This document shows positions 1-61,322 of a stretch of 64,000 bases of DNA, one piece after another. Where the stretch lies: the IMG/VR virus record IMGVR_UViG_3300034106_002919; one strand, given 5' to 3'. The number at the start of each line of letters is the position of its first letter. The stretch's first letter is position 1. Source of the stretch: an uncultured virus (IMG/VR IMGVR_UViG_3300034106_002919) (lineage: Duplodnaviria; Heunggongvirae; Uroviricota; Caudoviricetes). The notes below the pieces were generated by a model. It saw only the letters and a list, made by a program, of their open reading frames with translations. It had not been told where the DNA came from and ran no database searches. Position numbers and translations under genes: made by a program.

Positions 1-107
1 AACGGAAGAGGAATTGGAGTTTGAATTGCTTTTCCAAAAGGTTGCCCAAGAGCGTTGGATATTTACAAAGCATAGGTATGCAAGACAGAAACTTAAAGGA
101 GATAGAA

Positions 108-308
108 ATGGGTAAGGATTTTATTAAGGTATATGACCCAAATGGGTCAGAAGTTGAGTATTACTTGACCAAAGAAGAGGTTGAGCAATTGGTTCAAGAA
201 GCAAAAGAAGTGGTAGACCAGGCTTTTGATATGAATATGGATGATAGAGATCTTAGGGATATTGTTTGGGAATATCATCAGATTTTGGAGGAAAGTAGTG
301 AGTTCTAA
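108..308 (+). CDS. hypothetical acidic phage protein
   Basis: ORF 21..308; AAGGAG RBS before ATG at 108 suggests the shorter start. Confidence 0.6.
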   Translation: MGKDFIKVYDPNGSEVEYYLTKEEVEQLVQEAKEVVDQAFDMNMDDRDLRDIVWEYHQILEESSEF

Positions 309-567
309 TATCCTTACGGATATCAATGGGAAAGAGTTACCCAATAGAATTGTTGCTTCCAGAGCCATTACATACGATATGGAGAAGGTTTTGGAGGACT
401 TTGATCAGTTGGGTTTGGAGAAAACCATTGAGAATATCCAAGAAAGGATAAATACTTGGATTGAGGAAGACTTTCGGCAGCCCATTGGGAAATGGGAAGT
501 TCTAACAATGTTGCAATTCAATGATGGGGAACTTGAGGAATATTTTCCCCTTGAATTGGAGGAATAA
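298..567 (+). CDS. hypothetical acidic phage protein
   Basis: ORF 241..567; GGAGG RBS before in-frame GTG at 298, overlapping the upstream stop. Confidence 0.6.
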   Translation: MSSNILTDINGKELPNRIVASRAITYDMEKVLEDFDQLGLEKTIENIQERINTWIEEDFRQPIGKWEVLTMLQFNDGELEEYFPLELEE

Positions 568-783
568 TAGGGATCTCATCTAAGATATGAATTGAAACAT
601 ATATCTGGGATAGATGGGATATGAAATATACCCTGTAGGGGGTTGAGGTAAAAAATCGGGTTGGGGATATCTATAGGAGTAAAAAGAACTATAGAGAAGA
701 GAATAGAGATATACGTCAGGTTTGTTGTCATCAAAGGGATGCTCTATTCATTTCAATCTGAGATATACATCAAATACAGTTCT

Positions 784-829
784 AAATGGGCATACGGTGT
801 ATAAACAAATAGGCATACGGTGTATAAAC
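784..829. repeat. 23-bp tandem repeat x2
   Basis: aaatgggcatacggtgtataaac / aaataggcatacggtgtataaac (1 mismatch). Confidence 0.9.
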
Positions 830-1405
830 CTCATCTTCTAAGCGTTAAATAAACCTCAAATTTATTTAACTAGACGGGAGTAAATGAATACATATAGACG
901 CTTATATGTGTTCTCTCTCTATAGGATATATTCATATCTGAAAGAATTTAACCCGAAAATAAACAAAAATTTAGTGCATAAAATAACAATAAAATGCATA
1001 AAAACACAGCAAAAGCTTACCAAAGTTGGCAATATCAATGCAAAAGTTGCATATTATTACCAGTTTTGTAAAGGGGTTATAATTTGGAATGGTATAACCC
1101 CCCCATAAAGGTCTATTTTGTCAATAATTGTTTAATACTCTCTATAGAGAATACAATAAAGGGTTGTTTAACCCAGCTTTTGAAGCATTAATTAACTCAT
1201 GCAATATCTCAGACTTATTATGAGATAATAAGTGATAAAACTTGTACAAATTACACGCCTGTAAATAGGTAAAGCATACGCTAAGGCTGGGTCTAAGAGA
1301 TTATCCCCATAATTTGTAATGGTATGACTCAGCATAAAGGTTAGACCTAAAATGAATTAGGAAATTCATAATCTTTTTTTTTATTTTTGGACCTGTAATC
1401 TTACA

Positions 1406-1437
1406 TACTAAAAAGATTACAGCCCTGTAATCTTACA
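1406..1437 (+). repeat. degenerate cassette-boundary element (no GC inverted repeat)
   Basis: tactaaaaagattacagccctgtaatcttaca resembles the left part of the seven full elements. Confidence 0.5.
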
Positions 1438-1612
1438 ACGGTGGTGTTTTATTTATCTAAAGCTTTATTTAAAGATTTATTTCCGCATAGGCTCGATCTT
1501 TTACTTTTTATTAAGTTGGCTTTGTAGGCATTTGCGTATCTGCTATGATGAAATTAAGCCTAGGGTAAGGTGAAGAAATTAATTAAATTTAAAAAAAGAA
1601 AAGGAAAATGAA

Positions 1613-1903
1613 ATGGAAATTGAAATCATTAAAGAATCAGAAGTTGTTTTTTCTAAAAGAGGAAGAAAAGCAAATGCTGATCCAAAAGACATTGAAATCT
1701 TCAAATCGGTAAAAATTGGTCAAATGTTCCAGATTAAGGAAATGGGAATCAATTCCGAAATGAAAGACCAAAAGGAAATTGCAAACCATAAGGCAAAAGT
1801 TGGTGCTCAAATTAGGGCAATTGCTAATGCTGCAGGTTGGGAAAAAGTTTCCGTAAAATGGACAAATAACGGAATTCCTTGCGTAATCCGTTCGGGAAAG
1901 TAA
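1613..1903 (+). CDS. family A small basic protein (KRGRK motif), copy 1; putative DNA-binding
   Basis: MEIEIIKESEVVFSKRGRK...AQIRA...V.W paralogous to 2554-2847 and 3432-3707; AAGGA RBS; own terminator. Confidence 0.85.
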   Translation: MEIEIIKESEVVFSKRGRKANADPKDIEIFKSVKIGQMFQIKEMGINSEMKDQKEIANHKAKVGAQIRAIANAAGWEKVSVKWTNNGIPCVIRSGK

Positions 1904-1942
1904 AACCCAAAAACTAAAACAAAACTTACCCAAAGCCTAAAG

Positions 1943-1975
1943 AATCCCGCTGAGAAATCGGCGGGATTTTTTTTT
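1943..1975 (+). terminator. intrinsic terminator
   Basis: aatcccgctga-gaaa-tcggcgggatt followed by T-tract. Confidence 0.9.
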
Positions 1976-2090
1976 GTCTTTAATTACTAATAAAGTAAAA
2001 GAATTCTTTGCCCATAAAGTCTCATAAAGTAATTAATTGTAATTACTTTTAATAAAGAAAAAAATAAAGCTTTTTTTGGATTCCTAAACT

Positions 2091-2162
2091 TACTAAACAG
2101 TAAGGTTACAGAGTTGTAATCTTACACGGGTGTAAGTGCCGATCAAAGCATCGGAACACCCG
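2091..2162 (+). repeat. cassette-boundary element 1
   Basis: tactaaa + agtaaggttaca-gagt-tgtaatcttaca + cgggtgt...acacccg (36 bp). Confidence 0.85.
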
Positions 2163-2356
2163 CCTGTAAGGTTACGGACTTGTAAGGTAGGAATTGTAAT
2201 CTTACACAAGCCCATAAAGGTTACAAAAATGAAAGATTGGGTAATAAATAAAGTAAAGAAAAAACAAATGTTAAAAAGTTACAGCTCTGTAATCTTACTC
2301 CATCCTGGCTAACAAGCTTGTAAGATAACGATCTTGTAAGTTTTCAGGGGCATAAG

Positions 2357-2387
2357 AAAAGGGGAGAGGGCAACCGCCCTCTCCCCT
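2357..2387 (-). terminator. intrinsic terminator for minus-strand unit
   Basis: aggggagagggc-aacc-gccctctcccct with A-run on the left (U-tract on minus strand). Confidence 0.85.
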
Positions 2388-2553
2388 ACAAGGTTGTAAG
2401 TGTACGGACTTGTTAGTCGCGCTTACAACTTCTTACCCTTCGGAAGTGTGACACGCTATCGGAACCGCTTGGGCAGTAACTTACAAAGTTGCGAGTTTTG
2501 TATTACTTACCTAGCAGTCTCCCCGATAAGGTATAAGAAGTAAGTCGAGAAAC

Positions 2554-2847
2554 TTACTTCTTTGTCACTTTTGCTGGCATTACCTGCGGAACGGAACTAC
2601 CGTTCTTATCCGCTGGTGACCATACAACTTTGACCTTACGGTTGACTGCCGTACCTGCCGCGCGAATTTGCGCCGAGATACGAGCCTTGTCAACTTTGTA
2701 AGTTTCCAGAGTTGTATTGACTGCCAGACTAGGAAGTCTGAACGCATTACCTTTTGCGATAGCGTCTGCAACATTCTGGTCAAATGTCGCTTTCCGCCCC
2801 CGCTTGGTGAACACAATTTCAGACTCCGAAATAATCTCAATTTCCAT
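2554..2847 (-). CDS. family A small basic protein, copy 2
   Basis: MEIEIISESEIVFTKRGRK; start moved to 2847 by paralog alignment and GGAAGGGG RBS. Confidence 0.85.
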   Translation of the reverse strand: MEIEIISESEIVFTKRGRKATFDQNVADAIAKGNAFRLPSLAVNTTLETYKVDKARISAQIRAAGTAVNRKVKVVWSPADKNGSSVPQVMPAKVTKK

Positions 2848-3229
2848 TGTGATTACCCCTTCCAAGTCTTACAAGGTTGTAATCGTTCACGCCTGAACGA
2901 TTAGTAAATGGTGTCGTATGGCGTGACCATTCCACGCCCATCCCCAACTACTAACACGGACACCCGACGCGCCTAATGCCTAAACTTCCAAGTCTGGAAG
3001 TTTCGCCTAGCGCGGACTTCGGGCTGGGGTCAACCGCTACGAACTAGCCTACCTAAACTTACAAGTCTGAACAAGCCCATAATTTGTACAATTTGTAAAA
3101 AAATAATTGGGGAAAGAATAGCATAAAGGTCTATCTTACAAGTGTGATATCTTACAAGGATCATAAAGTCCTACCCCAGAATTACATATTTGTAAACTTA
3201 CAAGCTCCATAAAGTCCGATTAGAAAAAA

Positions 3230-3301
3230 TACTAAATTGTAATCTTACAACCCTGTAAACTTACACGGGCGTAAGTTTTCTGGATAAAACTAGCACGCCC
3301 G
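3230..3301 (+). repeat. cassette-boundary element 2
   Basis: tactaaat + tgtaatcttaca-accc-tgtaaacttaca + cgggcgt...acgcccg (36 bp). Confidence 0.9.
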
Positions 3302-3384
3302 CCCGTAAGATTACAATTGTGTAATCTTACAATGTTGTAAGGAGCTGCGTGTAAGTTTGCAGCTTTGTAAGATATCAAACTTGC

Positions 3385-3417
3385 AAGAAAGGGCAGGGGT
3401 CGAGCGACCCCTGCCCT
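3385..3417 (-). terminator. intrinsic terminator
   Basis: agggcaggggtcg-ag-cgacccctgccct just downstream of 3432-3707. Confidence 0.85.
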
Positions 3418-3431
3418 GACTTACAACCCTG

Positions 3432-3707
3432 TCAGGCAGGGCGTACTTGCGGGATTCCGTCAGGCGACCAAAGAACGGAAGACTTTTTGAATCCTGCCTC
3501 GGTCATTGCTGAGCGAATCTGCGCCGATACTCGCGCTTTATCTTTTGCGAAAGTGTCAGAGTTTGGGTCAAGTTTCATACTTGTAAGTCTAGCGACTTGA
3601 CCTTTCTTTAGACCCTTAAAGGCTTGCACCATCTTTGGGTCAGTATTTGACTTGCGACCTCGTTTTGTGAAAACGACCTCGCTTTCGCTGATAATTTCAA
3701 TATCCAT
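3432..3707 (-). CDS. family A small basic protein, copy 3
   Basis: MDIEIISESEVVFTKRGRK...DKARVSAQIR...WSPDGIPQV; leader ctaaccgaaagg. Confidence 0.85.
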   Translation of the reverse strand: MDIEIISESEVVFTKRGRKSNTDPKMVQAFKGLKKGQVARLTSMKLDPNSDTFAKDKARVSAQIRSAMTEAGFKKSSVLWSPDGIPQVRPA

Positions 3708-3931
3708 TGCCTTAGCCTTTCGGTTAGTGTTCGGGACTCATTCCCTAACAAGTAAAACACTACCTAAACTTACAAGTGGAAACTAGGTCAAATGGGCATT
3801 TTTTCTTTACTTTTTGTAAAGTTAGTGCGCTTGTGAAATCATTGTAGTCTTACAAGCTTGTCATAAAGGTGCGGGAGCTTGAATTACATTTTTAATATCT
3901 TACAAGCTTGCCAGATATGAATTCCATAAAG

Positions 3932-4003
3932 TACTAAATTGTTATCTTACAAGTATGAAAACTTACAAGGGTGTAAGCCCAGCTCACAAGCGGCTTACAC
4001 CCT
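3932..4003 (+). repeat. cassette-boundary element 3
   Basis: tactaaat + tgttatcttaca-agta-tgaaaacttaca + agggtgtaagcc...ggcttacaccct (36 bp). Confidence 0.9.
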
Positions 4004-4052
4004 CGTAAGACTACAAAGTTGTAAGATATCAAAGTTGTAAGATATCAGGATC

Positions 4053-4085
4053 AAAAGAGAAGGGCTGGTTTCCCAGCCCTTCTCT
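4053..4085 (-). terminator. intrinsic terminator
   Basis: agagaagggctgg-tttc-ccagcccttctct with A-run on the left. Confidence 0.85.
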
Positions 4086-4097
4086 CTTACAAGTCTG

Positions 4098-4301
4098 TCA
4101 GACTTCGGCAATGGTTCTAATGATACCTACCGAGGAAACAACCGTTGCCAAAACTGACAAGACTGTAAGACTGAACCACCATATTGCGCCTATGGTAGAC
4201 ATTTCAGCACCAGCAAGACTTACAAATATGTAACTTGTGTTTAGTCCTAAAACTGTTAGCAAACAAAACCCAACAAGTCTTACAAGTTTGTAACCCATCA
4301 C
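4098..4301 (-). CDS. small membrane protein (2 hydrophobic segments)
   Basis: 67 aa, two hydrophobic stretches; GTGA overlap with the upstream gene and AAAGGGGG RBS. Confidence 0.7.
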   Translation of the reverse strand: MMGYKLVRLVGFCLLTVLGLNTSYIFVSLAGAEMSTIGAIWWFSLTVLSVLATVVSSVGIIRTIAEV

Positions 4302-4705
4302 TCACCCCCTTTCGTTGCCTTGTACGCCTCAACCTCAATGACCGTGAGCATTTTATTGGTAGCGTCTTTGACAAACTTGTAAGATGGCAGGACTGTTTGG
4401 TATCCCCAAACTTGTTCAACCTTGTGTGACGCACTAATCGCAAGCGTTGCTTGACTTACAAGTATGGAAGCATTGGCAAAACTAACGGACTGCCAATTTA
4501 TTGACTTTGCGTAATCTGTCAAAACTGTAAGTCTGTGGTTCATATGGGATACGGCTTCCAACACTTCAGAACTTACAAACTTGTAAGGGTTCTTGCGGTT
4601 TTTTGTCTTTGCGGTTGTGACAGTACCCGACAGATACTTGTTCACAAACTTACAATACTGTAAGAGAAGCTTTGCTGTCTCTTGACTTACAACTTCGTTA
4701 CTCAT
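4298..4705 (-). CDS. hypothetical protein, coding sequence rich in CTTACAA/TTGTAAG motifs
   Basis: 135 aa ORF with ctaccgaaagga leader and sigma70-type promoter. Confidence 0.75.
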   Translation of the reverse strand: MSNEVVSQETAKLLLQYCKFVNKYLSGTVTTAKTKNRKNPYKFVSSEVLEAVSHMNHRLTVLTDYAKSINWQSVSFANASILVSQATLAISASHKVEQVWGYQTVLPSYKFVKDATNKMLTVIEVEAYKATKGGE

Positions 4706-4741
4706 GGGCTTATCCTTTCGGTAGGTGAACTTACAAGTACC

Positions 4742-4770
4742 ACTCTAGGCTAACTTACAAGTCAAGTCAA
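4742..4770 (-). promoter_or_regulatory. sigma70/SigA-type promoter
   Basis: minus strand TTGACT-17 bp-TAGAGT upstream of 4705. Confidence 0.7.
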
Positions 4771-4883
4771 GCCTCTAAAACCCTTATTTTATAAGGCTTT
4801 GCTGGATCACTAAACTTACAAGTTTGTAATTGAATTAGAAAATCGGTAAAAAAACAAGTTTGTAAGATAGCATTACATAAAGG

Positions 4884-4954
4884 TACTAAACTCAAACTTA
4901 CATTTGTGTAAACTTACAAGGGCGTAAGGCAAGCTCACAAGCTCCTTACGCCCT
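4884..4954 (+). repeat. cassette-boundary element 4
   Basis: tactaaa + ctcaaacttaca-tttg-tgtaaacttaca + agggcgtaagg...ccttacgccct (36 bp). Confidence 0.9.
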
Positions 4955-5192
4955 CCTGCTGTAAGATTACAAATTGTGAATATCTAATCGCCCATAAAGT
5001 TTATTTTGTAACCTTACAACTAGGTAACCTTACAAGGCACTTGTAACCTTACAAGGTTGTAAAATGATCCATTGTAGCTCCGTTACATTGTCAATCTGGC
5101 GGGGCTGTAAGGATTCGCAACTGTCATAGTCCCGTGTGGTAGTTTTGGATTGTCGGGAATCCGCCCGACACCTACCCAGAAGGGGGGCAGTC

Positions 5193-5648
5193 ATGGCAAC
5201 CAAGCCTGATGCCTATTCATGGTCGGTTGTGAAACCGACAGCCAAGGCTGAGCGTTCAGCCCGTGACATTTGGGCTGAATACAACGCCCAAGCGTCTGCC
5301 AACCAAACCAAGCCATTGGCACCATCACGCTGTCTAGTCATGGCAGTCATGCTCACGCTGAATTGCATTCCCGACAATTTGCGTGATGATTGCAAATTTG
5401 ACGTGAAGGGCGACCGCTCAAAAGCAACCGACCGTTTCCGTCTTTGCAATAATTCATCTGGCAAGGCTGATTGGGTAACACGCATTGAGATTCCCGCCGT
5501 GTGTGAATCTCGTTCAGCGTCACCACGCAAAGACAATCAGTTGCGTGAATGCGTAGATTCAATCATGGAAACCATCGGCGGGCTGTACACGGTTACGCCC
5601 GACCGTAACGATGGTGATTACGCATTCATCGTGCGTGTGTCTAAGTAG
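5193..5648 (+). CDS. family B hypothetical protein, copy 1
   Basis: DRS.A..R, CE.RSA.PR..N.LRE and PDR..G..A.IVR motifs shared with 6167 and 7826; ATG at 5193 after AAGGGGGG. Confidence 0.85.
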   Translation: MATKPDAYSWSVVKPTAKAERSARDIWAEYNAQASANQTKPLAPSRCLVMAVMLTLNCIPDNLRDDCKFDVKGDRSKATDRFRLCNNSSGKADWVTRIEIPAVCESRSASPRKDNQLRECVDSIMETIGGLYTVTPDRNDGDYAFIVRVSK

Positions 5649-5660
5649 ACACAACTAAAG

Positions 5661-5697
5661 AACACCCAACCGCAAATGCGGTTGGGTGTTTTTTTTT
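5661..5697 (+). terminator. intrinsic terminator
   Basis: aacacccaaccgca-aa-tgcggttgggtgtt + T-tract. Confidence 0.9.
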
Positions 5698-5774
5698 ATC
5701 TCATGTCGAGGTGCTGCAAATTGTTTTTAGATAAATGATCATTACGCATTTACCTAAATGCGATTACATAAAAG

Positions 5775-5847
5775 TACTAAATGTAATCTTACAAGTATGT
5801 AAGATTTTGCGGGCGTGCATCCCCAGCGTAGCGACCCCTTCCGCCCG
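5775..5847 (+). repeat. cassette-boundary element 5
   Basis: tactaaatgtaatcttacaagtatgtaagattttg + cgggcg...cgcccg (38 bp); 71/73 identical to element 6. Confidence 0.9.
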
Positions 5848-6025
5848 TCTGGCTTATAAATTGTAATAGAATGATGCGGAATAAAGGTTTAGTCGTAAGA
5901 TTACAATTTTGTAATATTACAATGTGAATAGAAGTATCGCCCATAAAGTATTAAACCGTAACCTTACAGTTGTGTAAGATTACTAGGGCGTTTTGTAATC
6001 TTACAAGTTTGTAAGTAGATCAGGG

Positions 6026-6062
6026 CGAACAAGTGTTCGCTCCTTGACCGAACACTTGTTCG
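6026..6062. promoter_or_regulatory. two LexA (SOS) boxes, Gram-positive/actinobacterial type
   Basis: cgaacaagtgttcg (6026-6039) and cgaacacttgttcg (6049-6062). Confidence 0.8.
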
Positions 6063-6166
6063 GAAAACTTTTTTACAAAAAGTTAAGTGAAACTATTGAT
6101 CCAGCCTTACAAGGCTGCTAAAAATGAAGTATCGGAATAAGCCGATACCTACCAAAGGGGTTAGTT

Positions 6167-6568
6167 ATGTCAGTACCGAAGAAAGTAACGGAAGCGTTTA
6201 ATCGCTTCAACGCCGAAGCGAAAGCGAAGCAGGTCAAGCAGATAAGCGAAGCAAGGCTTCCGCTTTTTGCGCTTATCTATGCGCTGACCGTAGTGCCGAA
6301 GTCCGAAGTCGCATTCGCTGACAAGTCAGACCGAAGCCTTGCGAAAGCCCGCTTTCAGACTTCCTACGAAGCCGAAGCGAACGGAGTGAAGTGGATAGTT
6401 TCCGTCAATGTCCCCGATTATTGCGAAGCACGAAGCGCAAGTCCCCGCTGGGAAAATACGCTTCGTGAAGCGGTGAAGTCTTATGTCGCTTTATTCCCGA
6501 AGCAGGACTTCGTAATCGTTCCAGACCGAACGAACGGAGACTTCGCTTATATCGTTCGCACGAAGTAA
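6167..6568 (+). CDS. family B hypothetical protein, copy 2
   Basis: 133 aa, paralog of 5193 and 7826; leader hairpin + ctaccaaagggg. Confidence 0.85.
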   Translation: MSVPKKVTEAFNRFNAEAKAKQVKQISEARLPLFALIYALTVVPKSEVAFADKSDRSLAKARFQTSYEAEANGVKWIVSVNVPDYCEARSASPRWENTLREAVKSYVALFPKQDFVIVPDRTNGDFAYIVRTK

Positions 6569-6582
6569 GCGAAAGAAGCACG

Positions 6583-6619
6583 AAGCCCCAGCCCGAAAGG
6601 GCTGGGGCTTTTTTGTTTT
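6583..6619 (+). terminator. intrinsic terminator
   Basis: aagccccagccc-gaaa-gggctggggctt + T-tract. Confidence 0.9.
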
Positions 6620-6714
6620 CGGATTAAGTCGAGATAAAAACTTTTGTCATAAAGTGTGACAATAGATTAGATAAAGATATAGGAAATAAAATACAGGAAT
6701 CAAATTACAGGAAT

Positions 6715-6787
6715 TACTAAATGTAATCTTACAAGTGTGTAAGATTTCGCGGGCGTGCATCCCCAGCGTAGCGACCCCTTCCGCCCG
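6715..6787 (+). repeat. cassette-boundary element 6
   Basis: near-identical copy of 5775-5847. Confidence 0.9.
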
Positions 6788-6855
6788 CGATGTAATTTTA
6801 CATATTTGTAAGTTTACGATCTTGTAATCTTACAACTATGTAAGAAGCTCAGGGG

Positions 6856-6869
6856 CGAACATTTGTTCG
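6856..6869. promoter_or_regulatory. LexA (SOS) box
   Basis: cgaacatttgttcg upstream of 6973. Confidence 0.8.
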
Positions 6870-6972
6870 CAAAGCTTTTTTACAAAAAGTTAAGCAAAAG
6901 ACTTGTAAGCGGGTCTGTCATTGTGTATTGTTAATGCATAGGGATAGTCCCTACTAACCGAAAGGATTAGAC

Positions 6973-7266
6973 ATGAAAAAGAGTCAACGGGAAGTCGTTG
7001 AATTAGCAGAAGAATTGGGCATTAGTGCCGATGAACTGCTAGATGAAATGGAAGTAGGTTCACCTCTCAAGGGATTCACCGTTGCCGTTTCTTTCTCCCG
7101 ACTTCAGGATATGAAAGACTTCGGCAGAGCACTTAGCCATATCGGAGTTGGTATCTACAAGGCAGACGCTCTAGACCCTGAATGGGGCGGTCATGCAAAT
7201 AAAAACAAGTTTGTGCTGCGGGTTGTAGATTCCCCAAGCAAGCCAGAGGAATGGCGTATCGCTTAG
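6973..7266 (+). CDS. hypothetical protein, possible N-terminal HTH-like segment
   Basis: 97 aa; VVELAEELGISADELL; leader ctaaccgaaagga. Confidence 0.8.
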   Translation: MKKSQREVVELAEELGISADELLDEMEVGSPLKGFTVAVSFSRLQDMKDFGRALSHIGVGIYKADALDPEWGGHANKNKFVLRVVDSPSKPEEWRIA

Positions 7267-7272
7267 CGGGTC

Positions 7273-7311
7273 TGTAGTCCCCGACCCGCTCAGGGTCGGG
7301 GATTACAATTT
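7273..7311 (+). terminator. terminator-like hairpin
   Basis: tgtagtccccgaccc-gctca-gggtcggggattaca, weak T-tract. Confidence 0.7.
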
Positions 7312-7350
7312 CGTAAAGTTACAAATGTGAGAGAGATCAGCTACATAAAG

Positions 7351-7423
7351 TACTAAATTGTAACCTTACAGTTATGTAAGATTACAGGGGCGTAAGGATA
7401 TCTGTATATCCTCCTTACGCCCC
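7351..7423 (+). repeat. cassette-boundary element 7
   Basis: tactaaat + tgtaaccttaca-gtta-tgtaagattaca + ggggcgtaagga...tccttacgcccc (37 bp). Confidence 0.9.
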
Positions 7424-7431
7424 CCTGGAAG

Positions 7432-7577
7432 TTATCCACAGGTTATCCACAGCACTGTGGATAAAGTGAGGCTGACCTGTGGATAAAGTATGAGTTATCC
7501 ACAGAGTTATCCACAACCCAGAAGTTATCCACAGGGTTTGAATAAAGTTATCCACAGATATTCACAGGTTATCCACA
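7432..7577. promoter_or_regulatory. cluster of nine perfect DnaA boxes
   Basis: TTATCCACA at 7432, 7443, 7495, 7507, 7525, 7548, 7569; TGTGGATAA at 7456, 7478; degenerate boxes at 7537 and 7558. Confidence 0.9.
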
Positions 7578-7660
7578 CCATAAAATGTAATAGAGTTACA
7601 GGCCATAAAGGTTAACCCGTAAGGTTACACTACTGTAAGATTACGAAACTACGCCTAGAC

Positions 7661-7720
7661 CGAACACCTGTTCGCACCTCGACCGAACACTTGTTCGCAA
7701 GCTAAGCGAACACTTGTTCG
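7661..7720. promoter_or_regulatory. three LexA (SOS) boxes at 23-bp spacing
   Basis: cgaacacctgttcg 7661, cgaacacttgttcg 7684 and 7707. Confidence 0.8.
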
Positions 7721-7825
7721 CAAAAAAAAATATCAGGCTATAATAGAAATGGGGTTGATCAAGGCTTACAACTATGGTAAAAATGGTGTATCGGAATAAC
7801 CCGATATCTACCGAAAGGATAAGTC

Positions 7826-8233
7826 ATGAAAGTATCCGCCAAACTCGCAAAGGCTTTTGCGAAATACAACGCCAACGCCAAGGCTCACCAAGTCAAGCCG
7901 ATTAGCGAGGCTCGCCTACCGTTGTTCTCACTCTTGGAGAACATTGTCAAAGTCGTACCTAGCACACTCTCCGAGTTTGCGGATACGAGTGACCGTTCAA
8001 CCGCTACGGCTCGCTACCGTTCTTGTGTGGAGGCTTACGAGTCGGGCGAGTCTTGGGTAACGCTCGTAGATGTCTTTGACTTCTGCGAAGTCCGTTCTGC
8101 TAATCCTCGCTACGAGAACACTTTGCGCGAGGCTATTAACTCGTACTACTTGCTAGGCGTGAACGCTCGCTCGTTCTCCGTAGTACCCGATAGGGCAAAC
8201 GGGCAACGGGCATATATCGTTCGCACCAAGTAG
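7826..8233 (+). CDS. family B hypothetical protein, copy 3
   Basis: 135 aa; ISEARLPLF shared with 6167; leader ctaccgaaagga. Confidence 0.85.
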   Translation: MKVSAKLAKAFAKYNANAKAHQVKPISEARLPLFSLLENIVKVVPSTLSEFADTSDRSTATARYRSCVEAYESGESWVTLVDVFDFCEVRSANPRYENTLREAINSYYLLGVNARSFSVVPDRANGQRAYIVRTK

Positions 8234-8254
8234 CAAACAAAACTGACCCGCTTT

Positions 8255-8289
8255 GCGAGAGTCCTAGCCGAAAGGCTAGGACTCTTTGC
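8255..8289 (+). terminator. intrinsic terminator
   Basis: gagagtcctagcc-gaaa-ggctaggactctt. Confidence 0.8.
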
Positions 8290-8483
8290 TATTGACGCTG
8301 CGAACACACGGTCGAGAGCGGGTCTGTACCTAAGCATTACCCTCAAGAAATATATACTCAAATTTTTCCTAAAATTGGATCGGAAATAAGCCTTGAAAGC
8401 TGGGGCTAAGAAAAAATCGGGGCTAAGACAATAATAAAGACATGCAATAATCTACATAGGAGAAGGAATAAAAGTTTCGGGGT

Positions 8484-8714
8484 TTAATCTTCTTCAGGAT
8501 TGCAAACTAATAGGTTTCTAATATCTAAGAGAAGATCAAACATCTCATTGGAGGAATAAATCTCTCTAGACAATGAGAGTTCAAGATTTTCATCAATGGA
8601 ATCTAGGGCTGCCAATACATTTTCAATCAATAGTTGCTTGGGGATAACACTCACGCCCTTTTTCTTGGGGTTCTTCTTTGTGGGGTTCTTTGGTTTTTCA
8701 ATGAGTGCTTCCAT
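8484..8714 (-). CDS. hypothetical protein
   Basis: 76 aa ORF with AAGGA RBS; last gene of the minus-strand block. Confidence 0.6.
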   Translation of the reverse strand: MEALIEKPKNPTKKNPKKKGVSVIPKQLLIENVLAALDSIDENLELSLSREIYSSNEMFDLLLDIRNLLVCNPEED

Positions 8715-8821
8715 ATCCTTGTTCCATTACATATATCATATCAACAATTCCACAATTTGCATAAGTCACATAAGTCACCTGAATGCCTTGAATGCCTCTG
8801 TTAGTATCTTCCGAGGCCCAC

Positions 8822-9568
8822 TCAATTGATTTCAATGTTGAACTTTGGCTTGCTATTGTGCTGGGCAAGATTATTCTCACCCAATTTTGTTATTTCATAC
8901 CCCAAATCTTCCAATAACTTGTACAACTCCTGTCTTCTTGGTTGAAACCATTCCTTATGAGTCCAAGCCTCAAACATGATCGGAGGATACCCATTGTTTG
9001 TTAGTGTTTGAACGGCCCCACGAATCACGGCCATCTCCAAGCCCTCAACATCAATCTTTATAAGCCTTATATTTTCTATGTTGAGAGCATCAAGATATGT
9101 TGAAATCATGAATTCAACCTCACCCTTTGTTGAGGCTTCATATGCTTTTTCACGAACCTCTGGGTCAATACTGAAGGCTCCAATATTACCTTCTGTCATA
9201 TAGTTGGGTAATTGTATTTCTACCTCTTCTTCACGATCTGAAATTGCATACTCATATGCATATACATTATGTAATGAGTTTATAATTATGTTTCCGCAAA
9301 GTTGGTAATAAATAACCCTTTGAGGCTCGTATGCATTGAATTTTATATGTGGAAAGGTCTTTGCCAACGGGATTGTAAAAACTCCAAGATTTGCGCCAAT
9401 ATCCAAAACAACCCCATCTTCGCATTCAGATAGAATCGCATTGGCTATCTTTAATAATGCTTGCTCAAAACCGCCCGTGTGTCTTATGGAGTCGGAAACA
9501 ATGTCATTCTTTTTGAATAGGATAAACTTGCACCCATTTGTTTCAATAATATCAGTCTGAGGAAGCAT
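8822..9568 (-). CDS. FkbM-family methyltransferase
   Basis: VLDIGANLG, YEPQ and IKIDVEGLE motifs. Confidence 0.9.
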   Translation of the reverse strand: MLPQTDIIETNGCKFILFKKNDIVSDSIRHTGGFEQALLKIANAILSECEDGVVLDIGANLGVFTIPLAKTFPHIKFNAYEPQRVIYYQLCGNIIINSLHNVYAYEYAISDREEEVEIQLPNYMTEGNIGAFSIDPEVREKAYEASTKGEVEFMISTYLDALNIENIRLIKIDVEGLEMAVIRGAVQTLTNNGYPPIMFEAWTHKEWFQPRRQELYKLLEDLGYEITKLGENNLAQHNSKPKFNIEIN

Positions 9569-9572
9569 TTGA

Positions 9573-10202
9573 TTATCTTATCAGAATCAGGCCAGCAACT
9601 CTTGATATCCACCAACTTCTTTTTAAAGATCCAGTTCCGTTGTAATGAATACCATCACCATAAAACCAAGTTGGATTTGACTTTGCAATTGTTGCCCAAT
9701 CAAAGATATACATATTTGAATATTTTACTTTTTGTTTAATTAGCATTGAGTTCCAAATATTTGAGTTTTTTGCACTATATGTCGGCCTTGTTGGAGAATC
9801 TGACCAAACATTTATCCAAAGTACCTTTTGACCACCAATTACAAACATCATTTTATTAAAACGATCAAGCATGCCTTCTGGAGATGTTGCTGATGAATCA
9901 TTTGTCCCGAGTGCTACAACCCAACAGATGTTATCCCCCAGAGCCTCCTGATAGTGCCTCACAGTTTCTATTCCATTCATTGGGGCAGAATCACCCGAAA
10001 AGATAATTGAACGACCATTGGAGGCATTTACAACGACCTGAGAGAATCCTGCTGCCTCGTAGTCGGTCTTGATTGTTCCCATCATTGACAAAGTTGTTGA
10101 ATCACCAATATGAACAAGATAATCACATCTTTGAGTTGTTTTAATCCCTTCACAGGAAAAAGGGGTTAACAATAAAGAAATTATTAAGATTAATATTTTC
10201 AT
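9573..10202 (-). CDS. secreted SGNH/GDSL hydrolase-like protein
   Basis: signal peptide; GDS, LGTND and DGIH blocks. Confidence 0.85.
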   Translation of the reverse strand: MKILILIISLLLTPFSCEGIKTTQRCDYLVHIGDSTTLSMMGTIKTDYEAAGFSQVVVNASNGRSIIFSGDSAPMNGIETVRHYQEALGDNICWVVALGTNDSSATSPEGMLDRFNKMMFVIGGQKVLWINVWSDSPTRPTYSAKNSNIWNSMLIKQKVKYSNMYIFDWATIAKSNPTWFYGDGIHYNGTGSLKRSWWISRVAGLILIR

Positions 10203-10206
10203 CCTG

Positions 10207-10291
10207 CGGAGAGAGAGGGATTTGAACCCCCGCTATCTTGCGATAGGCCTGTTTTCAAGACAGGTGCATTAGTCCACTCTGCCATCTCTCC
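10207..10291 (-). tRNA. tRNA-Ser(UGA)
   Basis: cloverleaf GGAGAGA..., anticodon loop CTTGAAA, long variable arm, GGTTCAAATCC. Confidence 0.92.
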
Positions 10292-10348
10292 AACGAATTA
10301 ACACCATGTACAGAGCCTCACCTAAGCGGTCAATGTTAATTCTATAGG

Positions 10349-10423
<75 letters not shown>

Positions 10424-10427
10424 GCTG

Positions 10428-10500
10428 TCTGGATGGCAGGACTTGAACCTGCGACCTCCTGTTCCCAAAACAGGTGCGCTACCAACTGTGCTACATCCAG
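10428..10500 (-). tRNA. tRNA-Pro(UGG)
   Basis: CTGGATGTAGCACAGTTGGTAGCGC..., loop TTTGGGA. Confidence 0.93.
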
Positions 10501-10510
10501 CAATTCTTAA

Positions 10511-11137
10511 TCATTCTACATCGTAATGATATCTATCATCATCAGATGTTCTCCATTTATCCGCATCCTCAACATCCCATTGTCTGGTGTTAATCAGGCG
10601 ATCAATGAGGTTTACTTTCTTTGTGGTAAATGAAGGATCATAAAGTCTTACACGATTATTTGGTTGAATTGCAAAATTACCATCGTTTCTTAACATTACA
10701 TGACCGCACTTGTGCTGGCCAGGATTAGTGCTAAAACCAAGATTTGTAATATTATCATCTGGAGCATGCCAGTCTAGTGTGAATAGATATTTAGCATCTA
10801 CAAACTCCCCAGATCTGCTTACATACTTCATTCGCATATTCCTCATTGCTTGAAACTCAGTTACCGTAACATGAGGGCTGAATGAATTCCATAAGACAAG
10901 TTCATGGATATCAACTTCTGGCACATCTGGTTCAGCACAGAATGCGCTAATTGGCATTCTCCACCAAACACCTCCGTCTTCCATTAGAAAGTGAAATAAA
11001 GGACTACGGCCTTGTATTGATGCTACTCCAAAAATCATGCATGGAAAATACTTATCAAAAGAATCCTTTTGATTGCGAAGATAGTTTCCTCTTACATAAC
11101 ATTCAATTGGCGGTATATTTATATTTAGTTCTGGCAT
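10511..11137 (-). CDS. conserved-looking hypothetical phage protein
   Basis: 208 aa ORF inside the tRNA cluster; TATAAT just upstream (leaderless). Confidence 0.8.
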   Translation of the reverse strand: MPELNINIPPIECYVRGNYLRNQKDSFDKYFPCMIFGVASIQGRSPLFHFLMEDGGVWWRMPISAFCAEPDVPEVDIHELVLWNSFSPHVTVTEFQAMRNMRMKYVSRSGEFVDAKYLFTLDWHAPDDNITNLGFSTNPGQHKCGHVMLRNDGNFAIQPNNRVRLYDPSFTTKKVNLIDRLINTRQWDVEDADKWRTSDDDRYHYDVE

Positions 11138-11152
11138 GATGCCATTATACAG

Positions 11153-11226
11153 TAGGTGCAGTGAGATTTGAACTCACACTGGAAGGATTTTAAGTCCTCT
11201 GTCTCTGCCGATTGGACTATGCACCC
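11153..11226 (-). tRNA. tRNA-Leu(UAA), short variable loop
   Basis: GGGTGCATAGTCCAATCGGCAGAGAC..., loop CTTAAAA. Confidence 0.85.
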
Positions 11227-11234
11227 TTGTTCAG

Positions 11235-11316
11235 TGGGCAAAGAGGGACTTGAACCCTCACTCCGAAAGGAACAGGAACCTAAATCCTGCGCGTCTGCCA
11301 ATTTCGCCATTCGCCC
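11235..11316 (-). tRNA. tRNA-Leu(UAG)
   Basis: GGGCGAATGGCGAAATTGGCAGACGC..., loop TTTAGGT, long variable arm. Confidence 0.93.
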
Positions 11317-11320
11317 TCTG

Positions 11321-11393
11321 CTCCAACCCCAGGGCTTGAACCTGGAACCAACGGATTAACAGTCCGCTGCTCTGCCAATTGAGCTAGGTTGGA
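11321..11393 (-). tRNA. tRNA-Asn(GUU)
   Basis: TCCAACCTAGCTCAATTGGCAGAGC..., loop CTGTTAA. Confidence 0.95.
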
Positions 11394-11410
11394 TCAATCG
11401 CACTGTTGAT

Positions 11411-11704
11411 CTAATCTTTTATATTAAATTTAATGTTAATATCTAAAGAACCATCATTAGTTTCAAACTTTTCTGTTGTATCTGAAAAGTCTAGTTCTTT
11501 TACTCTTTCTTCAATTAATTGAGAAATAATAATTTTTAATTCTTCTGTTTCTTCGTCTGTCATTTTTGATTCAATATCAATGAAGTCTCTTTCATTATCA
11601 GACCAATTACTTTTCACAAACCTTCCTTTTTTTTGAATTTTATAATCAACCAGCAAATATATAATCCATCCTAAACAGGTAATAGCAATAAGGATTTCAT
11701 ACAT
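11411..11704 (-). CDS. hypothetical protein with N-terminal TM helix
   Basis: 97 aa, hydrophobic N-terminus, GAGG RBS. Confidence 0.7.
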   Translation of the reverse strand: MYEILIAITCLGWIIYLLVDYKIQKKGRFVKSNWSDNERDFIDIESKMTDEETEELKIIISQLIEERVKELDFSDTTEKFETNDGSLDINIKFNIKD

Positions 11705-11705
11705 A

Positions 11706-12317
11706 CTAATAACCTCTCAATGGCAGTAAAAACTCACATTCTTTTGTATGAGGGTCTATTCTAATAAACATCATAGCAACAACACAGTATCCAAGAATAT
11801 CAATCAAAGTGTCTACAACTGTTTCATTTGGAACAGAATTGAGTTTGCCAATATTCAAAATATTTTTAAAGTCATCACTACCAGACTTCATAAATAGATT
11901 ACTAAGTCTAGCCAATTTATCACTCAGCCTAATACAAATTCCAATAAGACCGAACTTGGAAATATTCTCAGGTCCATAATCTTTTTGTTTTCTAGTAAGA
12001 AGGTTAGCAATGCTTTCAACACGAACATCTTCTGGAGAAATATCTTGAAGAATTGAACAAGAAGTTGCTGCAATCATAAACCAATCAAAGTCATTTTGAT
12101 CAGCAATTTTTTCAGAGTTTAAGCCTTTTACAATAGGAGCAATATTTGTATCAAAATAAGTAATTAAATAGTTATACTTATCATGAGTTGTCATATCTCC
12201 TTGATCCCAGTAACACTTGTCTAATACATCGTAGACACAGTTATAACAAGCATCTTCCCAAGACTGCCTTGAATCCGTTGGATTATAAACAACCCATTTA
12301 TTTTTTCTAATTTTCAC
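11706..12317 (-). CDS. DUF1599 / nucleotide-modification-associated domain 1-like protein
   Basis: RKQKDYG...IRLSDKLARL...DTLIDILGY signature. Confidence 0.75.
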   Translation of the reverse strand: MKIRKNKWVVYNPTDSRQSWEDACYNCVYDVLDKCYWDQGDMTTHDKYNYLITYFDTNIAPIVKGLNSEKIADQNDFDWFMIAATSCSILQDISPEDVRVESIANLLTRKQKDYGPENISKFGLIGICIRLSDKLARLSNLFMKSGSDDFKNILNIGKLNSVPNETVVDTLIDILGYCVVAMMFIRIDPHTKECEFLLPLRGY

Positions 12318-15720: not shown

Positions 15721-16407
15721 TCATACAGCCTCACGACCATTTTCAACAAATGCTTTATGAGTAATTGGCATACAATCTGCAAATACTTGTTCAATAACAT
15801 CTGCATAGCATCTAATTTCATACTGTGCATGCTCATCATTTCTAAGCGAAATAAAATTAATCAAACTTCTAGCATTAACAGTCCAAATAAACTCTGTATA
15901 TTGTCCAACTGGAAGAACTGATCTAGCAATCTCTTTAGCAACACCTTCTGCTAATAGAACTTGGTAAGTATTATAAGCATAATTGTATACTGATTTTGTC
16001 TTAGATTCTACAAGTGAAAGAACAGCAGGGTCATTTATTGTTTCAAAACTGTAAGAACCAGGCTTACCGACTTGTTGTCTAATATTTTCTGGATTGTAAA
16101 AATCAATAGATTCTGGGACATAATATCTCATACTCATTTCATTAAATGAAGACCATCTATGTCTAAACCACTCTCTTGCTACAAAAATTGGACACTTAAT
16201 ATAAAATTTAAAAACTGAGTGCTCAAATGGAGTAGCATGTTTGTTTTTCATTAAAAAGTTAATAAGACCAATAGATTTCTCATCCATTTCGGTCTGGTAA
16301 GTAGCAAAAGATACTCTTGCTGCATTTACAACATCAAGGTCATTTGCCATCTTGTCAAGAAGCTTTACTGAGCCGTGATCTAGTACAAAAAATTCGTTAT
16401 CTGCCAT
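15721..16407 (-). CDS. thyX: flavin-dependent thymidylate synthase
   Basis: H.TPFEH, RHRWSSFNEMSMRY and HAQYEIR motifs. Confidence 0.97.
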   Translation of the reverse strand: MADNEFFVLDHGSVKLLDKMANDLDVVNAARVSFATYQTEMDEKSIGLINFLMKNKHATPFEHSVFKFYIKCPIFVAREWFRHRWSSFNEMSMRYYVPESIDFYNPENIRQQVGKPGSYSFETINDPAVLSLVESKTKSVYNYAYNTYQVLLAEGVAKEIARSVLPVGQYTEFIWTVNARSLINFISLRNDEHAQYEIRCYADVIEQVFADCMPITHKAFVENGREAV

Positions 16408-16619
16408 AGGGTGATATCCTATCAGAAAAAAATCAAAAATTTCTTTTGTTTTGATTTGAATTTTCCAGAATCTGTTTGTATACTCCGTATACCAGTATAC
16501 GGAAGCATACTAATATACTTAAATACTTTAATAGTCTATAGTATGTTTAGTATACTAAGCATGCTTAGCATAGAGAAAGAGACTTCTTTGTATAAAAGCC
16601 AGAATGGTATAATTGCACT

Positions 16620-16859
16620 ATGAGAATAGTTGCTATTATTGAATCTGATGACTGTGGACCAGCAGCTGTGCTTGACGCAGAAAACATTACGATTACAAAA
16701 ATTAATGATCTTTATATAGCAGCTAGCAGGTGCATGTATCGCAATAGTCCTGTCGTTTGTGAAATTTCTAAAGAAGTTGCTACAAAGTTGATGCTTAATG
16801 GTGTAAGATGTTTAGACTTTAACGACTCTACGACTGTTGCTGATAATGAAAAAGATTAG
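16620..16859 (+). CDS. hypothetical protein
   Basis: 79 aa; TATAAT 7 nt before ATG (leaderless). Confidence 0.7.
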   Translation: MRIVAIIESDDCGPAAVLDAENITITKINDLYIAASRCMYRNSPVVCEISKEVATKLMLNGVRCLDFNDSTTVADNEKD

Positions 16860-59334: not shown

Positions 59335-59944
59335 TTTAATTATTAGCGATAGCAAATGGTCTGAATCGCATGGTGCTGAAGGAAACCATCTTGGAATGGG
59401 AATAATGTATTATGCAATTCCATATGTTCTAAAAGCACAGCATTGTGTATGTCTAGGATCTGGCGCTGGTTTTGTTCCTAAATTAATGCACCGCGCACAG
59501 TCTCAATTGATAGAAGAGAGCATTATTTCTTCTCATAAAATTACATTAATTGATGCCAATATTGGACCTTGGGGACTTCCAGTTTATCAGGAAGGGATTG
59601 ATGGTTATCCTGAAATTACTTTAATAAAGTCTATAACAGACGATGCTGTACAACTTGTTGACAATATTGACTATCTACATGTTGATGCAGATCATACATA
59701 TGACCAAGTACTTAATGACTTTAATAATTATTTATCAAAAATGAATGGTGATAACTGGGCAATAACTGTTCATGATACATATAATTTTAGCGATGCAGAT
59801 CATCCACCAATTGGTTCTTACCAAGCTGCTATTGATTTCTCGCAAGCAAATGATTTATATTTTACAAATTTTAGAATAGGTTGTGGTACTGGATTAATTA
59901 TGCCAAGGAGGAAATTTGAAACGCTGGGAATATTTAATTTCTGA
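59327..59944 (+). CDS. class I SAM-dependent methyltransferase (Methyltransf_24-like)
   Basis: CLGSGAGF, IDYLHVDADHTY, VHDT. Confidence 0.8.
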   Translation: MFDLIISDSKWSESHGAEGNHLGMGIMYYAIPYVLKAQHCVCLGSGAGFVPKLMHRAQSQLIEESIISSHKITLIDANIGPWGLPVYQEGIDGYPEITLIKSITDDAVQLVDNIDYLHVDADHTYDQVLNDFNNYLSKMNGDNWAITVHDTYNFSDADHPPIGSYQAAIDFSQANDLYFTNFRIGCGTGLIMPRRKFETLGIFNF

Positions 59945-61319: not shown

Positions 61320-61322
61320 GTA

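Follow-up and report, generated by a model that had tools for sequence, protein, structure and literature searches.

Allele-specific repetition of short DNA words in a small gene family of an uncultured lake siphophage

Why should short DNA words recur in a gene more often than its protein and its codons call for? The question is raised by three paralogous genes, here named B1, B2, and B3, in a 64,000-nt stretch of an uncultured tailed phage (IMG/VR record IMGVR_UViG_3300034106_002919; Caudoviricetes), which was analyzed at its full length and is called the window below. The phage is a lake siphophage, and the B genes lie in its 7-kb, mostly noncoding control region. A first-pass annotation had proposed that genes of this region are each saturated with a word of their own, so that one copy would survive any given restriction or sequence-specific defense. 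We found that selection or a gene-specific process acts on the DNA of the B genes beyond protein and codon usage and that the effect is allele specific and strand symmetric, with an avoiding and an amplifying component. The three genes (lengths in amino acids [aa]) are as follows.

5193-5648, + strand: B1, 151 aa, GC content 51%
6167-6568, + strand: B2, 133 aa, GC content 51%
7826-8233, + strand: B3, 135 aa, GC content 53%

Word usage of the B genes

The B2 and B3 proteins are 56% identical, and those of B2 and B1 are 35% identical. All five word counts on which the proposal rested (CGAAG, CGAG, TGA/TCA, AAAT, and CTTACAA) proved exact on recount. The B2 coding sequence holds 16 CGAAG/CTTCG and no CGAG/CTCG; one further CGAAG/CTTCG lies in its terminator stem, and 16 of the 17 in the unit read CGAAGY. 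The B3 coding sequence has 15 CGAG/CTCG and a single CGAAG, with two more CGAG/CTCG just downstream. B1 has no CGAAG, one CGAG/CTCG, and 29 TGA/TCA, its commonest trinucleotide, together with eight TGAAT/ATTCA, seven ACGCA, seven CACGC, and no GATC. Clusters of CGAAG or CGAG (at least four in 150 bp) were not found outside the word's own gene.

Much of this had been put down to synonymous choice, which holds for part of the effect. Glutamate is spelled GAA/GAG 9/0 in B2 and 1/8 in B3. With codons redrawn from phage usage, the 16 CGAAG of B2 compared with an expectation of 1.2 (maximum, 4 in 300 draws) and the 15 CGAG of B3 with one of 1.0. Permuting the codons of B2 itself gave 8.3 CGAAG (z = 4.0), so that about half of the raw effect is unusual codon choice and the remainder exceeds what the gene's own codons yield.

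For a measure free of after-the-fact word choice, we used the strand-merged 5-mer index of coincidence (IC) and compared it with four controls: within-gene synonymous permutation, a dinucleotide-preserving synonymous shuffle, a palindrome-capped shuffle, and confinement to the gene's own set of 4-mers. Under synonymous permutation, the IC z score was 10.7 for B2, 9.4 for B1, and 7.7 for B3, which in this order rank first to third among 72 nonoverlapping open reading frames (ORFs) of at least 70 aa. Three further B genes, from two related loci introduced below (L001 and L002), had z scores of 7.3, 3.4, and 4.3. Forty-three ordinary 405-nt chunks gave a mean of 0.87 (standard deviation [SD], 1.0; maximum, 3.06). 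The other six small ORFs of the region are listed here; their scores were 5.0 for X, 4.6 for TM, 3.6 for A3, 2.6 for A1, 1.8 for A2, and −0.1 for C.

1613-1903, + strand: A1, 96 aa, GC content 35%
2554-2847, − strand: A2, paralog of A1
3432-3707, − strand: A3, paralog of A1
4098-4301, − strand: TM, hydrophobic ORF of 67 aa that overlaps the end of X
4298-4705, − strand: X, 135 aa
6973-7266, + strand: C, 97 aa, a small gene unrelated to B, between B2 and B3, which serves as an internal control

The dinucleotide-preserving shuffle left all six B genes high, with z scores of 5.3 (B1), 5.1 (B2), 6.3 (B3), and 6.3, 3.5, and 3.6 for the three further genes. Elsewhere it gave 0.5 for A1, 1.3 for A2, 0.2 for A3, 1.7 for X, and 0.7 for C, and 17 ordinary chunks had a mean of 0.55 and a maximum of 3.93. 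With palindromes capped, the two L001 genes had z scores of 3.5 and 4.9, the other four B genes (B1, B2, B3, and that of L002) had 7.9 to 12.1, and gene C had −0.2. Even confinement to each gene's own 4-mers left z scores of 2.0 to 5.8 in the B genes. The word excess thus survives codon-shuffled controls, is unmatched by core genes, and is real and specific to family B.

The B genes also use 10 to 22% fewer distinct 5-mers than their permutations (z = −3.8 to −8.1). Their words occupy all three codon phases (4, 5, and 8 in B2) and both strands, with 8 CGAG and 9 CTCG in B3, 6 and 5 of the two word forms in L001 gene b, and a skew of 14 to 3 in B2. They are spread evenly over the whole unit, with no compact spaced cluster. 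In B2 and B3 they run on a little beyond the stop codon, and in L002 they reach into leader and promoter. The excess of 5-mer pairs holds for direct and inverted ones alike and is similar at distances of 5 to 12, 13 to 30, 31 to 100, and more than 100 nt (pooled ratios, 1.47 to 1.76 for direct and 2.24 to 1.73 for inverted pairs).

The vocabularies of the paralogs had been described as nonoverlapping, and they are more disjoint than codon usage predicts. Strand-merged 5-mers shared between B paralogs fall below expectation (z = −3.0 to −6.3), and the fraction of strand-merged 4-mers absent from at least one of B1, B2, and B3 is 0.456, compared with 0.231 expected. A further suggestion, that recoding suppresses recombination between paralogs, fared less well. 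At synonymous sites the paralogs are saturated, with the same codons at 31 to 44%, and same-codon use at identical residues equals the codon-usage expectation (z = −0.8 to 1.5), which is saturation and not repulsion; we therefore rejected active anti-recombination recoding.

Relatives and avoided sites

Family B is confined to one lineage. Searches returned 13 proteins among 5.8 billion, all close kin, and 6 clusters at 50% identity among 1.84 billion representatives, with no member in named phages or IMG/VR; neither IMG/VR nor a pattern scan of genome contigs gave further B-family DNA. A metagenome scan yielded two syntenic loci, L002 with a B1 ortholog and L001 with two B genes, a and b, which are flanked by the end of a C-family gene and by a methyltransferase gene. 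Each of these three genes adds a distinct vocabulary of its own, which bears out the expectation that homologs would do so: GATC/GATCA in L002, CAATG/CATTG (11) in L001 gene a, and GAATC/GATTC (10) in L001 gene b. The L002 unit has 14 GATC in 660 bp, 6 in the coding sequence and 8 ahead of the start codon; most of the 14 read TGATC. Within 462 to 625, the promoter region of the gene holds two short tandem runs of (GATCGT), of two or three units, which the window lacks, and four further GATC are set at intervals of 20, 20, and 19 bp across leader and start codon. GATC is absent from the other five of the six B genes, yet reaches 14 in this unit, which points to positive amplification and not to avoidance alone.

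Compared in 50-nt blocks, L002 and the window are mostly 90 to 100% identical in the flanks and 46 to 82% identical in the B1 body. The two B1 proteins are 64% identical and use the same codon at 59% of identical residues. B paralogs and orthologs align with few or no insertions or deletions (indels). Contigs of four lake sequencing runs (80% likeness) differ from the window at only five places in B2, two in B3, and none in B1, so the diversity is old and block exchanged and is not being generated now; ongoing hypermutation was rejected on the same counts. The B genes are thus lineage-restricted, hypervariable cassettes in conserved flanks. Given this confinement to the lineage, their CpG-rich makeup and GC content of 51 to 53% must be maintained in place, in a genome with a GC content of 36.5% and a CpG observed/expected ratio of 0.42.

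Short palindromes fall well below synonymous expectation in the B genes, and the same sites are low genome-wide, a depletion of the restriction type. The observed/permuted ratio of 4-bp palindromes was 0.29 in B2, 0.48 in B3, 0.51 in the L002 gene, 0.54 in L001 gene b, 0.56 in B1, and 0.68 in L001 gene a, and 28 ordinary chunks had a mean of 0.82 (minimum, 0.43). In counts, B1 has 14 against 24.8 expected and B2 has 7 against 24.3, with no 6-bp palindrome against 5.5. Pooled over the six B genes, the counts were 3 against 16.6 for CGCG, 0 against 8.6 for TCGA, 0 against 9.2 for GGCC, 0 against 10.1 for AGCT, and 0 against 4.6 for CCGG. Ribosome-binding-site-like and AT-rich 4-mers are low as well (AAGG, 15 against 24.6; TAAA, 9 against 18.1). 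The other 55.5 kb of the window (8501 to 64000) has no TCGA (51 to 185 expected), no CCGG (27 to 61), and 19 ACGT (58 to 185), and neither TCGA nor CCGG occurs among 287 CpG contexts across 12 small genes.

The words enriched in B genes occur in the other 55.5 kb at 35 against 34 expected for CGAAG, 174 against 199 for GATC, and 124 against 95 for GAATC; not being depleted there, they do not behave as restriction targets. Survival of one copy under any restriction is therefore not supported as the role of these vocabularies, since TCGA and CCGG are avoided in all B genes alike and a single cut would presumably be lethal to a one-molecule genome, whichever paralog it struck.

All seven TCGA of the window are intergenic (1493, 2545, 3400, 5706, 6629, 7679, and 8312). 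Five of them read TCGAG and lie in hairpin loops or shortly past terminators, as they do in L001 and L002, as if they were marks of unit borders.

Candidate explanations for the word excess

We tentatively favor the reading that the B words are recognition words on double-stranded DNA (dsDNA), each unit doubling as an array for a putative sequence-specific factor, although it may well prove wrong. Each B transcription unit would then join a protein gene to a dense cis-acting word array, and the two would be swapped between phages as one cassette. The candidate reader would be the B product itself, whose model is weakly winged-helix-like, or a host methylase or a SeqA-like or restriction-type reader. 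Unusual codon usage and the avoidance of restriction-type, ribosome-binding-site-like, and AT-rich words would account for roughly half of the effect, as a by-product. We lean this way because the GATC-saturated L002 allele has leader sites phased at 19 to 20 bp, because words spill into untranslated flanks, and because of the cassette boundaries and the precedent of pacA and pac in phage P1. An alternative raised in the first-pass annotation, that each gene is a decoy carpet for a different DNA-binding enzyme, comes close to this reading, the role of the carpet being putative. A narrower version, in which every B allele makes up half of an orthogonal protein-DNA pair and the B protein or a partner reads the private 4- to 6-bp word that carpets its own unit, we consider unlikely; the carpet could then be a timer or titration array or a switch that senses methylation.

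Several observations weigh against the array reading. The sample is six genes from three related phages, and the gene ranking next after B1, B2, and B3 is the major capsid gene, with a z score of 5.4. About half of the IC excess returns when the 4-mers absent from a gene are simply forbidden. In raw 400-nt-window repetitiveness only B2 is an outlier (0.0082 to 0.0089, against 0.0036 ± 0.0010 in bulk); no one word dominates in B1, B3, or the L001 genes, and these are not outliers by this measure. A 10- or 11-bp periodicity of the words was looked for and not found, and their length of 4 to 6 bp and irregular spacing are unlike those of pac sites and iterons. An AlphaFold2 model of B2 built from 15 sequences (predicted local distance difference test [pLDDT] score, 92; predicted template modeling [pTM] score, 0.85) matched nothing at E values of ≤0.001 in PDB or BFVD by Foldseek. 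The top VIA-align row, RepE, had a Z of 4.8 (root mean square deviation, 3.6; 76 residues), and all rows were below a Z of 5, which is below the chance level of the tool. Residues 89 to 105, the most conserved stretch across the family, would be the recognition helix of a winged-helix fold, and their conservation speaks against a helix that reads DNA differently in each allele.

The weak VIA-align rows are mostly winged-helix DNA-binding domains (Pi, OmpR/PhoB type, Stn1, ScpB, BirA, and CtsR), so the B model weakly resembles this fold; with the high confidence of the model, this speaks for the array reading, as a lead and not a finding. The best sequence match in PDB had an E value of 0.57, and ESM Atlas gave nothing above 0.88. 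Pfam, PHROGs, Foldseek, and VIA-align gave no likeness to terminase subunits.

The main rival is multiconstraint avoidance, a possibility with a modest chance: the B genes, as short, highly expressed, and probably first-acting genes, would have to dodge many words at once (restriction palindromes, internal words like ribosome-binding sites, and AT-rich words), and the recurring ones would be leftovers of a problem solved differently in each gene by historical accident. The palindrome ratios (0.29 to 0.68, against a mean of 0.82 in ordinary chunks), the pooled depletion of CGCG, TCGA, GGCC, AGCT, CCGG, AAGG, and TAAA, the shortage of distinct 5-mers (z = −3.8 to −8.1), and the half of the excess recovered by forbidding absent 4-mers all speak for it. 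Avoidance of palindromes or 4-mers is nonetheless insufficient for the repetition: palindrome capping leaves z scores of 3.5 to 12.1 (7.9 to 12.1 in four of the six B genes) and own-4-mer confinement leaves 2.0 to 5.8. In addition, the paralogs, in one genome and one host, avoid different word sets by their trinucleotide tables, GATC is avoided in five B genes and amplified in the sixth, noncoding DNA included, and seven TCGA are retained in intergenic DNA of the region. A foreign signature, with each cassette keeping the codon and oligonucleotide usage of a past replicon and recombination in the flanks having brought the cassettes together, appears decidedly unlikely. It would fit the large share of codon choice in the raw enrichment (CGAAG rising from 1.2 to 8.3 of 16; glutamate, 9/0 against 1/8), the GC content of 51 to 53% in a genome of 36.5%, the CpG observed/expected ratio (1.02 in region 1100-8300, 0.42 in the other 55.5 kb), a strand-symmetric pattern that is uniform along the gene, and the cassette-like boundaries. 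Yet no outside donor pool is visible in the 6 clusters among 1.84 billion, in the 13 close-kin matches among 5.8 billion, or in named phages or IMG/VR. Ordinary genes of this strongly signed genome (no TCGA, no CCGG) reach z scores of only about 1, and the sites that the phage itself avoids are avoided in all B genes.

The remaining two rivals we regard as very improbable. One places the function in RNA, with the B messages acting as structured mRNAs or sponges or lacking different sequence-specific RNase sites, so that one would always survive; this is the workable form of the bet-hedging idea because each gene is a separate transcript. Besides the separate transcription units, it draws on sense-strand 4-mers absent from at least one of B1, B2, and B3 (0.684 against 0.543; z = 6.1) and on the B2 word, with 14 sense and 3 antisense copies. 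However, reverse-complement words are enriched like direct ones in B3 and in both L001 genes, and the L002 GATC lie largely upstream of the transcript body. Folding energies in the B genes have z scores of −0.5 to −4.5, compared with a mean of −1.5 (SD, 1.3; minimum, −4.2) in 17 ordinary chunks, and RNA structure as the driver was rejected because these minimum free energies are within or near the range of ordinary genes. The other is mutational: slippage or template switching near an origin would spread motifs, and tolerant, fast-evolving B genes would collect them. Amplified short motifs throughout the region, the (GATCGT) runs of two or three units upstream of the L002 gene, and close word doublets (direct pairs in B2 at 5 to 12 nt, 21 against 8) speak for it. 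Against it, the pair excess beyond 100 nt is as large as that within 12 nt (direct, 1.70 against 1.47; inverted, 1.73 against 2.24), paralogs and orthologs show few or no indels, gene C between B2 and B3 is unaffected, and four lake runs are near-identical to the window in the B genes. Local slippage was rejected because the excess is uniform over distance and the relatives lack length variation. Dual coding was also rejected: a 107-aa antisense ORF of B1 is split in three in L002, and none is shared in L001.

Known systems offer partial likenesses to the arrays that the preferred reading posits. In lambda (O and ori) and SPP1 (gene 38 and oriL), replication origins lie inside initiator genes, and the binding repeats sit in the protein's own hypervariable gene, so that gene and repeats move as a single cassette; iterons are 17 to 22 bp long, few, clustered, and phased. 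A DnaA-box cluster and AT-rich DNA beside the B genes, with the iteron-binding proteins RepE and Pi as the best weak fold rows, could suggest a similar arrangement. However, the B words are of 4 to 6 bp, in 10 to 17 copies and unphased, a B protein is half the size of an initiator, three paralogs stand side by side, and no tandem iterons of 17 to 22 bp were found in or beside the B genes. The first-step-transfer region of T5 is repeat rich and bears DnaA boxes, small early genes, and a special restriction-site content. The B region is similarly repeat rich, with DnaA boxes and small, putatively early genes; it differs in holding the only TCGA of the window, and its entry ahead of the other DNA is putative.

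"Cryptic simplicity," the overrepresentation of scrambled short motifs in fast-evolving sequences, was reportedly described by Tautz, Trick, and Dover in 1986. Short motifs are likewise overrepresented in the rapidly diverging B sequence, but the B genes lack length changes and local clustering and are stable in the population. Judged by titles and the opening of abstracts, no phage paper on cryptic simplicity was found, in a search too narrow to call the phenomenon unpublished. The avoidance of restriction palindromes in phage genomes, as outlined in PMC6286503, is matched by the absence of TCGA and CCGG (55.5 kb and 12 small genes) and the near absence of AGCT, GGCC, and CGCG in the B genes; it differs in that the repetition is not reproduced by avoidance and that one B allele amplifies GATC.

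The account of P1 in PMC10028697, which cites Sternberg and Coulby, places seven TGATCA/G hexamers inside pacA as the pac site. In P1, a short word is set into phage coding sequence by codon choice and read on dsDNA in a manner dependent on GATC methylation (PMC10028697); the 14 GATC of the L002 allele, most of them TGATC, recall it. As in P1, the B genes repeat the same word in coding sequence beyond codon usage. By the same account, the P1 site differs in being one fixed word in two tight blocks within 161 bp (PMC10028697), whereas B words are unit-wide, irregular, and allele specific. The B proteins lack terminase likeness, and the reading of B words is putative.

If gene bodies do act as allele-specific arrays, the synonymous sites of small phage early genes would form a second readable layer. 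The enriched word of an ORFan gene would then point to the specificity of its reader, a computational handle on arms-race ORFans, and a set of natural orthogonal DNA-recognition pairs would come to hand. Were the paired version to hold, one phage would carry three non-cross-talking pairs, swapped as cassettes among related phages, and the family would offer, ready-made in nature, a library of readers for short DNA words, the specificity of each legible in the spelling of its gene. Under multiword avoidance, too, family B would be a sharp case of nucleotide-level constraint shaping a 400-bp gene. Synonymous-permutation tests can single out B-like genes in a genome.

The control region and its repeats

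The nine small ORFs apparently form one transcription unit each, and the region (1100 to 8300) is about 42% coding by the sum of their lengths, with a GC content of 42%. It has 22 terminator-like hairpins, against 8.3 ± 2.7 in shuffles. Pfam, PHROGs, and NCBIfam assigned no family to any of the nine proteins (best NCBIfam hit, E value of 0.0011 and 19 bits, with a cutoff of 331), and over positions 1 to 12000 the Rfam gathering score was reached only by six tRNAs. The three A proteins share about 50% identity, and their alignment is too variable for use in a locus scan. An A protein matched nothing at E values of ≤0.001 in PDB by Foldseek (best VIA-align Z, 5.3), and a profile comparison of A with B gave a probability of 0.2%. 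The control elements of the B genes and their neighborhood are as follows.

5151-5170, + strand: hairpin in the 5′ untranslated region (5′-UTR) of B1, ahead of the ribosome-binding site
6127-6150, + strand: 5′-UTR hairpin of B2, ahead of the ribosome-binding site
7789-7806, + strand: 5′-UTR hairpin of B3, ahead of the ribosome-binding site
5657-5694, + strand: terminator of B1, from the scan for terminator-like hairpins
6582-6611, + strand: terminator of B2, from the same scan
about 8259-8290, + strand: terminator of B3, from the same scan
6026-6062: two CGAAC-N4-GTTCG palindromes (families D9 and D17), at B2
6856-6869: one CGAAC-N4-GTTCG palindrome, at C
7661-7720: three CGAAC-N4-GTTCG palindromes, at B3
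7432-7577 (146 bp): nine perfect TTATCCACA boxes (seven on the + strand, two on the − strand), between C and the B3 promoter region

The 5′-UTR hairpin is common to all B genes, those of L001 and L002 included; three of its seven pairs show compensatory changes across the six sequences. The CGAAC-N4-GTTCG palindrome occurs in six copies upstream of B2, C, and B3 and in three in L001 (403 to 440 and 1496 to 1511), and it precedes all B genes, both of L001 among them, except those of the B1 type. It is flanked by G or C, and TCGA therefore never arises. It matches the consensus of the Gram-positive (Cheo-type) LexA box and is a candidate operator. In B2, C, and the two L001 B units, four of the five, the palindromes are followed by a conserved promoter-like block, TTTACAAAAAGT, which the B3 leader lacks. 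The TTATCCACA box is the DnaA-box consensus, and the cluster at 7432 to 7577 is a likely replication origin or DnaA-titrating site. Bacterial contigs of the lake runs also pile up at this cluster.

The first-pass annotation had also credited positions 1613 to 1903 (A1) and 4098 to 4705 (X and TM) with vocabularies of their own, a claim that holds for B1, B2, and B3 but for neither of these. A1, at 35% GC, has 13 AAAT/ATTT, but AAAT is not among its top words, and this richness is plain composition with no excess over chance. The X/TM stretch has 8 CTTACAA/TTGTAAG and 11 CTTACA/TGTAAG, and CTTACA is in excess there (8 against 2.1 expected; z = 5.1). These words are half-sites of a region-wide array and no private vocabulary. 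The array consists of 27 TTACA-N4-TGTAA and 20 TGTAA-N2-TTACA palindromes, all within 1251 to 7638 and absent from the other 56 kb. The spacing is strict, other spacers of 0 to 10 nt giving at most two chance pairs, and the two forms interlock with a 16-bp period and fill the intergenic DNA of the region. Of 132 half-sites before position 8500, TM and X contain 13 and A2 and A3 one each; A1, C, and the B genes have none. Full TTACA-N4-TGTAA palindromes lie at 4573 and 4650 in X, and two more full palindromes lie at 4220 and 4280 in TM; a strictly spaced site array is thus demonstrably embedded in coding DNA in the same region as the B genes. It recurs in L001 (279 to 1452) and L002 (48 to 1218) and, from its layout, resembles a cooperative operator, or an array of the centromere type, for a putative dimeric binder.

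CATAAAG occurs 16 times in 1104 to 7604, always on the + strand, even beside the − strand genes A2, A3, TM, and X, and often 7 to 12 nt ahead of an array palindrome; transcripts of the + strand may use it as an element of the −10 type. A 76-nt element is present at 5772 to 5847 and 6712 to 6787 (96% identity), ahead of the control regions of B2 and C, and has conserved counterparts in L001 (about 1165 to 1240) and L002 (1188 to 1263). Its parts are an ACTAAAT block that resembles a promoter, a single array palindrome, and a GC-rich stem closed by a 25-nt loop; it had no match in Rfam and is possibly a small RNA or a protein-binding module.

In the rest of the window (overall GC content, 36.5%) we found portal, capsid, and tape measure (1,891 aa) proteins and replication genes for a DnaB-type helicase, a DnaG-type primase, a polymerase III alpha subunit, and a RecA-like protein. 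Ribonucleotide reductase, ThyX, dCMP deaminase, two GT4 glycosyltransferases, two methyltransferases, and six tRNAs are also encoded. The major capsid gene (24064 to 25095; GC content, 47%) has the top vocabulary score outside family B and the strongest mRNA folding (z = −4.2). The genes for ThyX, dCMP deaminase, the two GT4 "conflict-system" glycosyltransferases, and the two methyltransferases are at 15721 to 17859 and 59327 to 63507, a set from which a modified base, possibly a glycosylated one, may be expected in the phage DNA. The closest named relatives by polymerase are Streptomyces phages, at only 38% identity, and a nucleotide search of the window gave tRNA-sized matches only. The stretch from 1100 to 8500 is present in lake-water metagenomes (24 runs from 24 studies among the matches listed).

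Two smaller features lie in noncoding DNA. Left of the region, at 784 to 829, an AT-rich stretch contains a tandem pair of 23-nt repeats (96% identity). A GC-rich hairpin at 4920 to 4953 has a counterpart in L002 (about 319 to 352; block identity, 35/50) in which, by eye, the 9- to 10-bp stems are identical and the loop of about 15 nt is reverse complemented, which points to a small inversion between inverted repeats.

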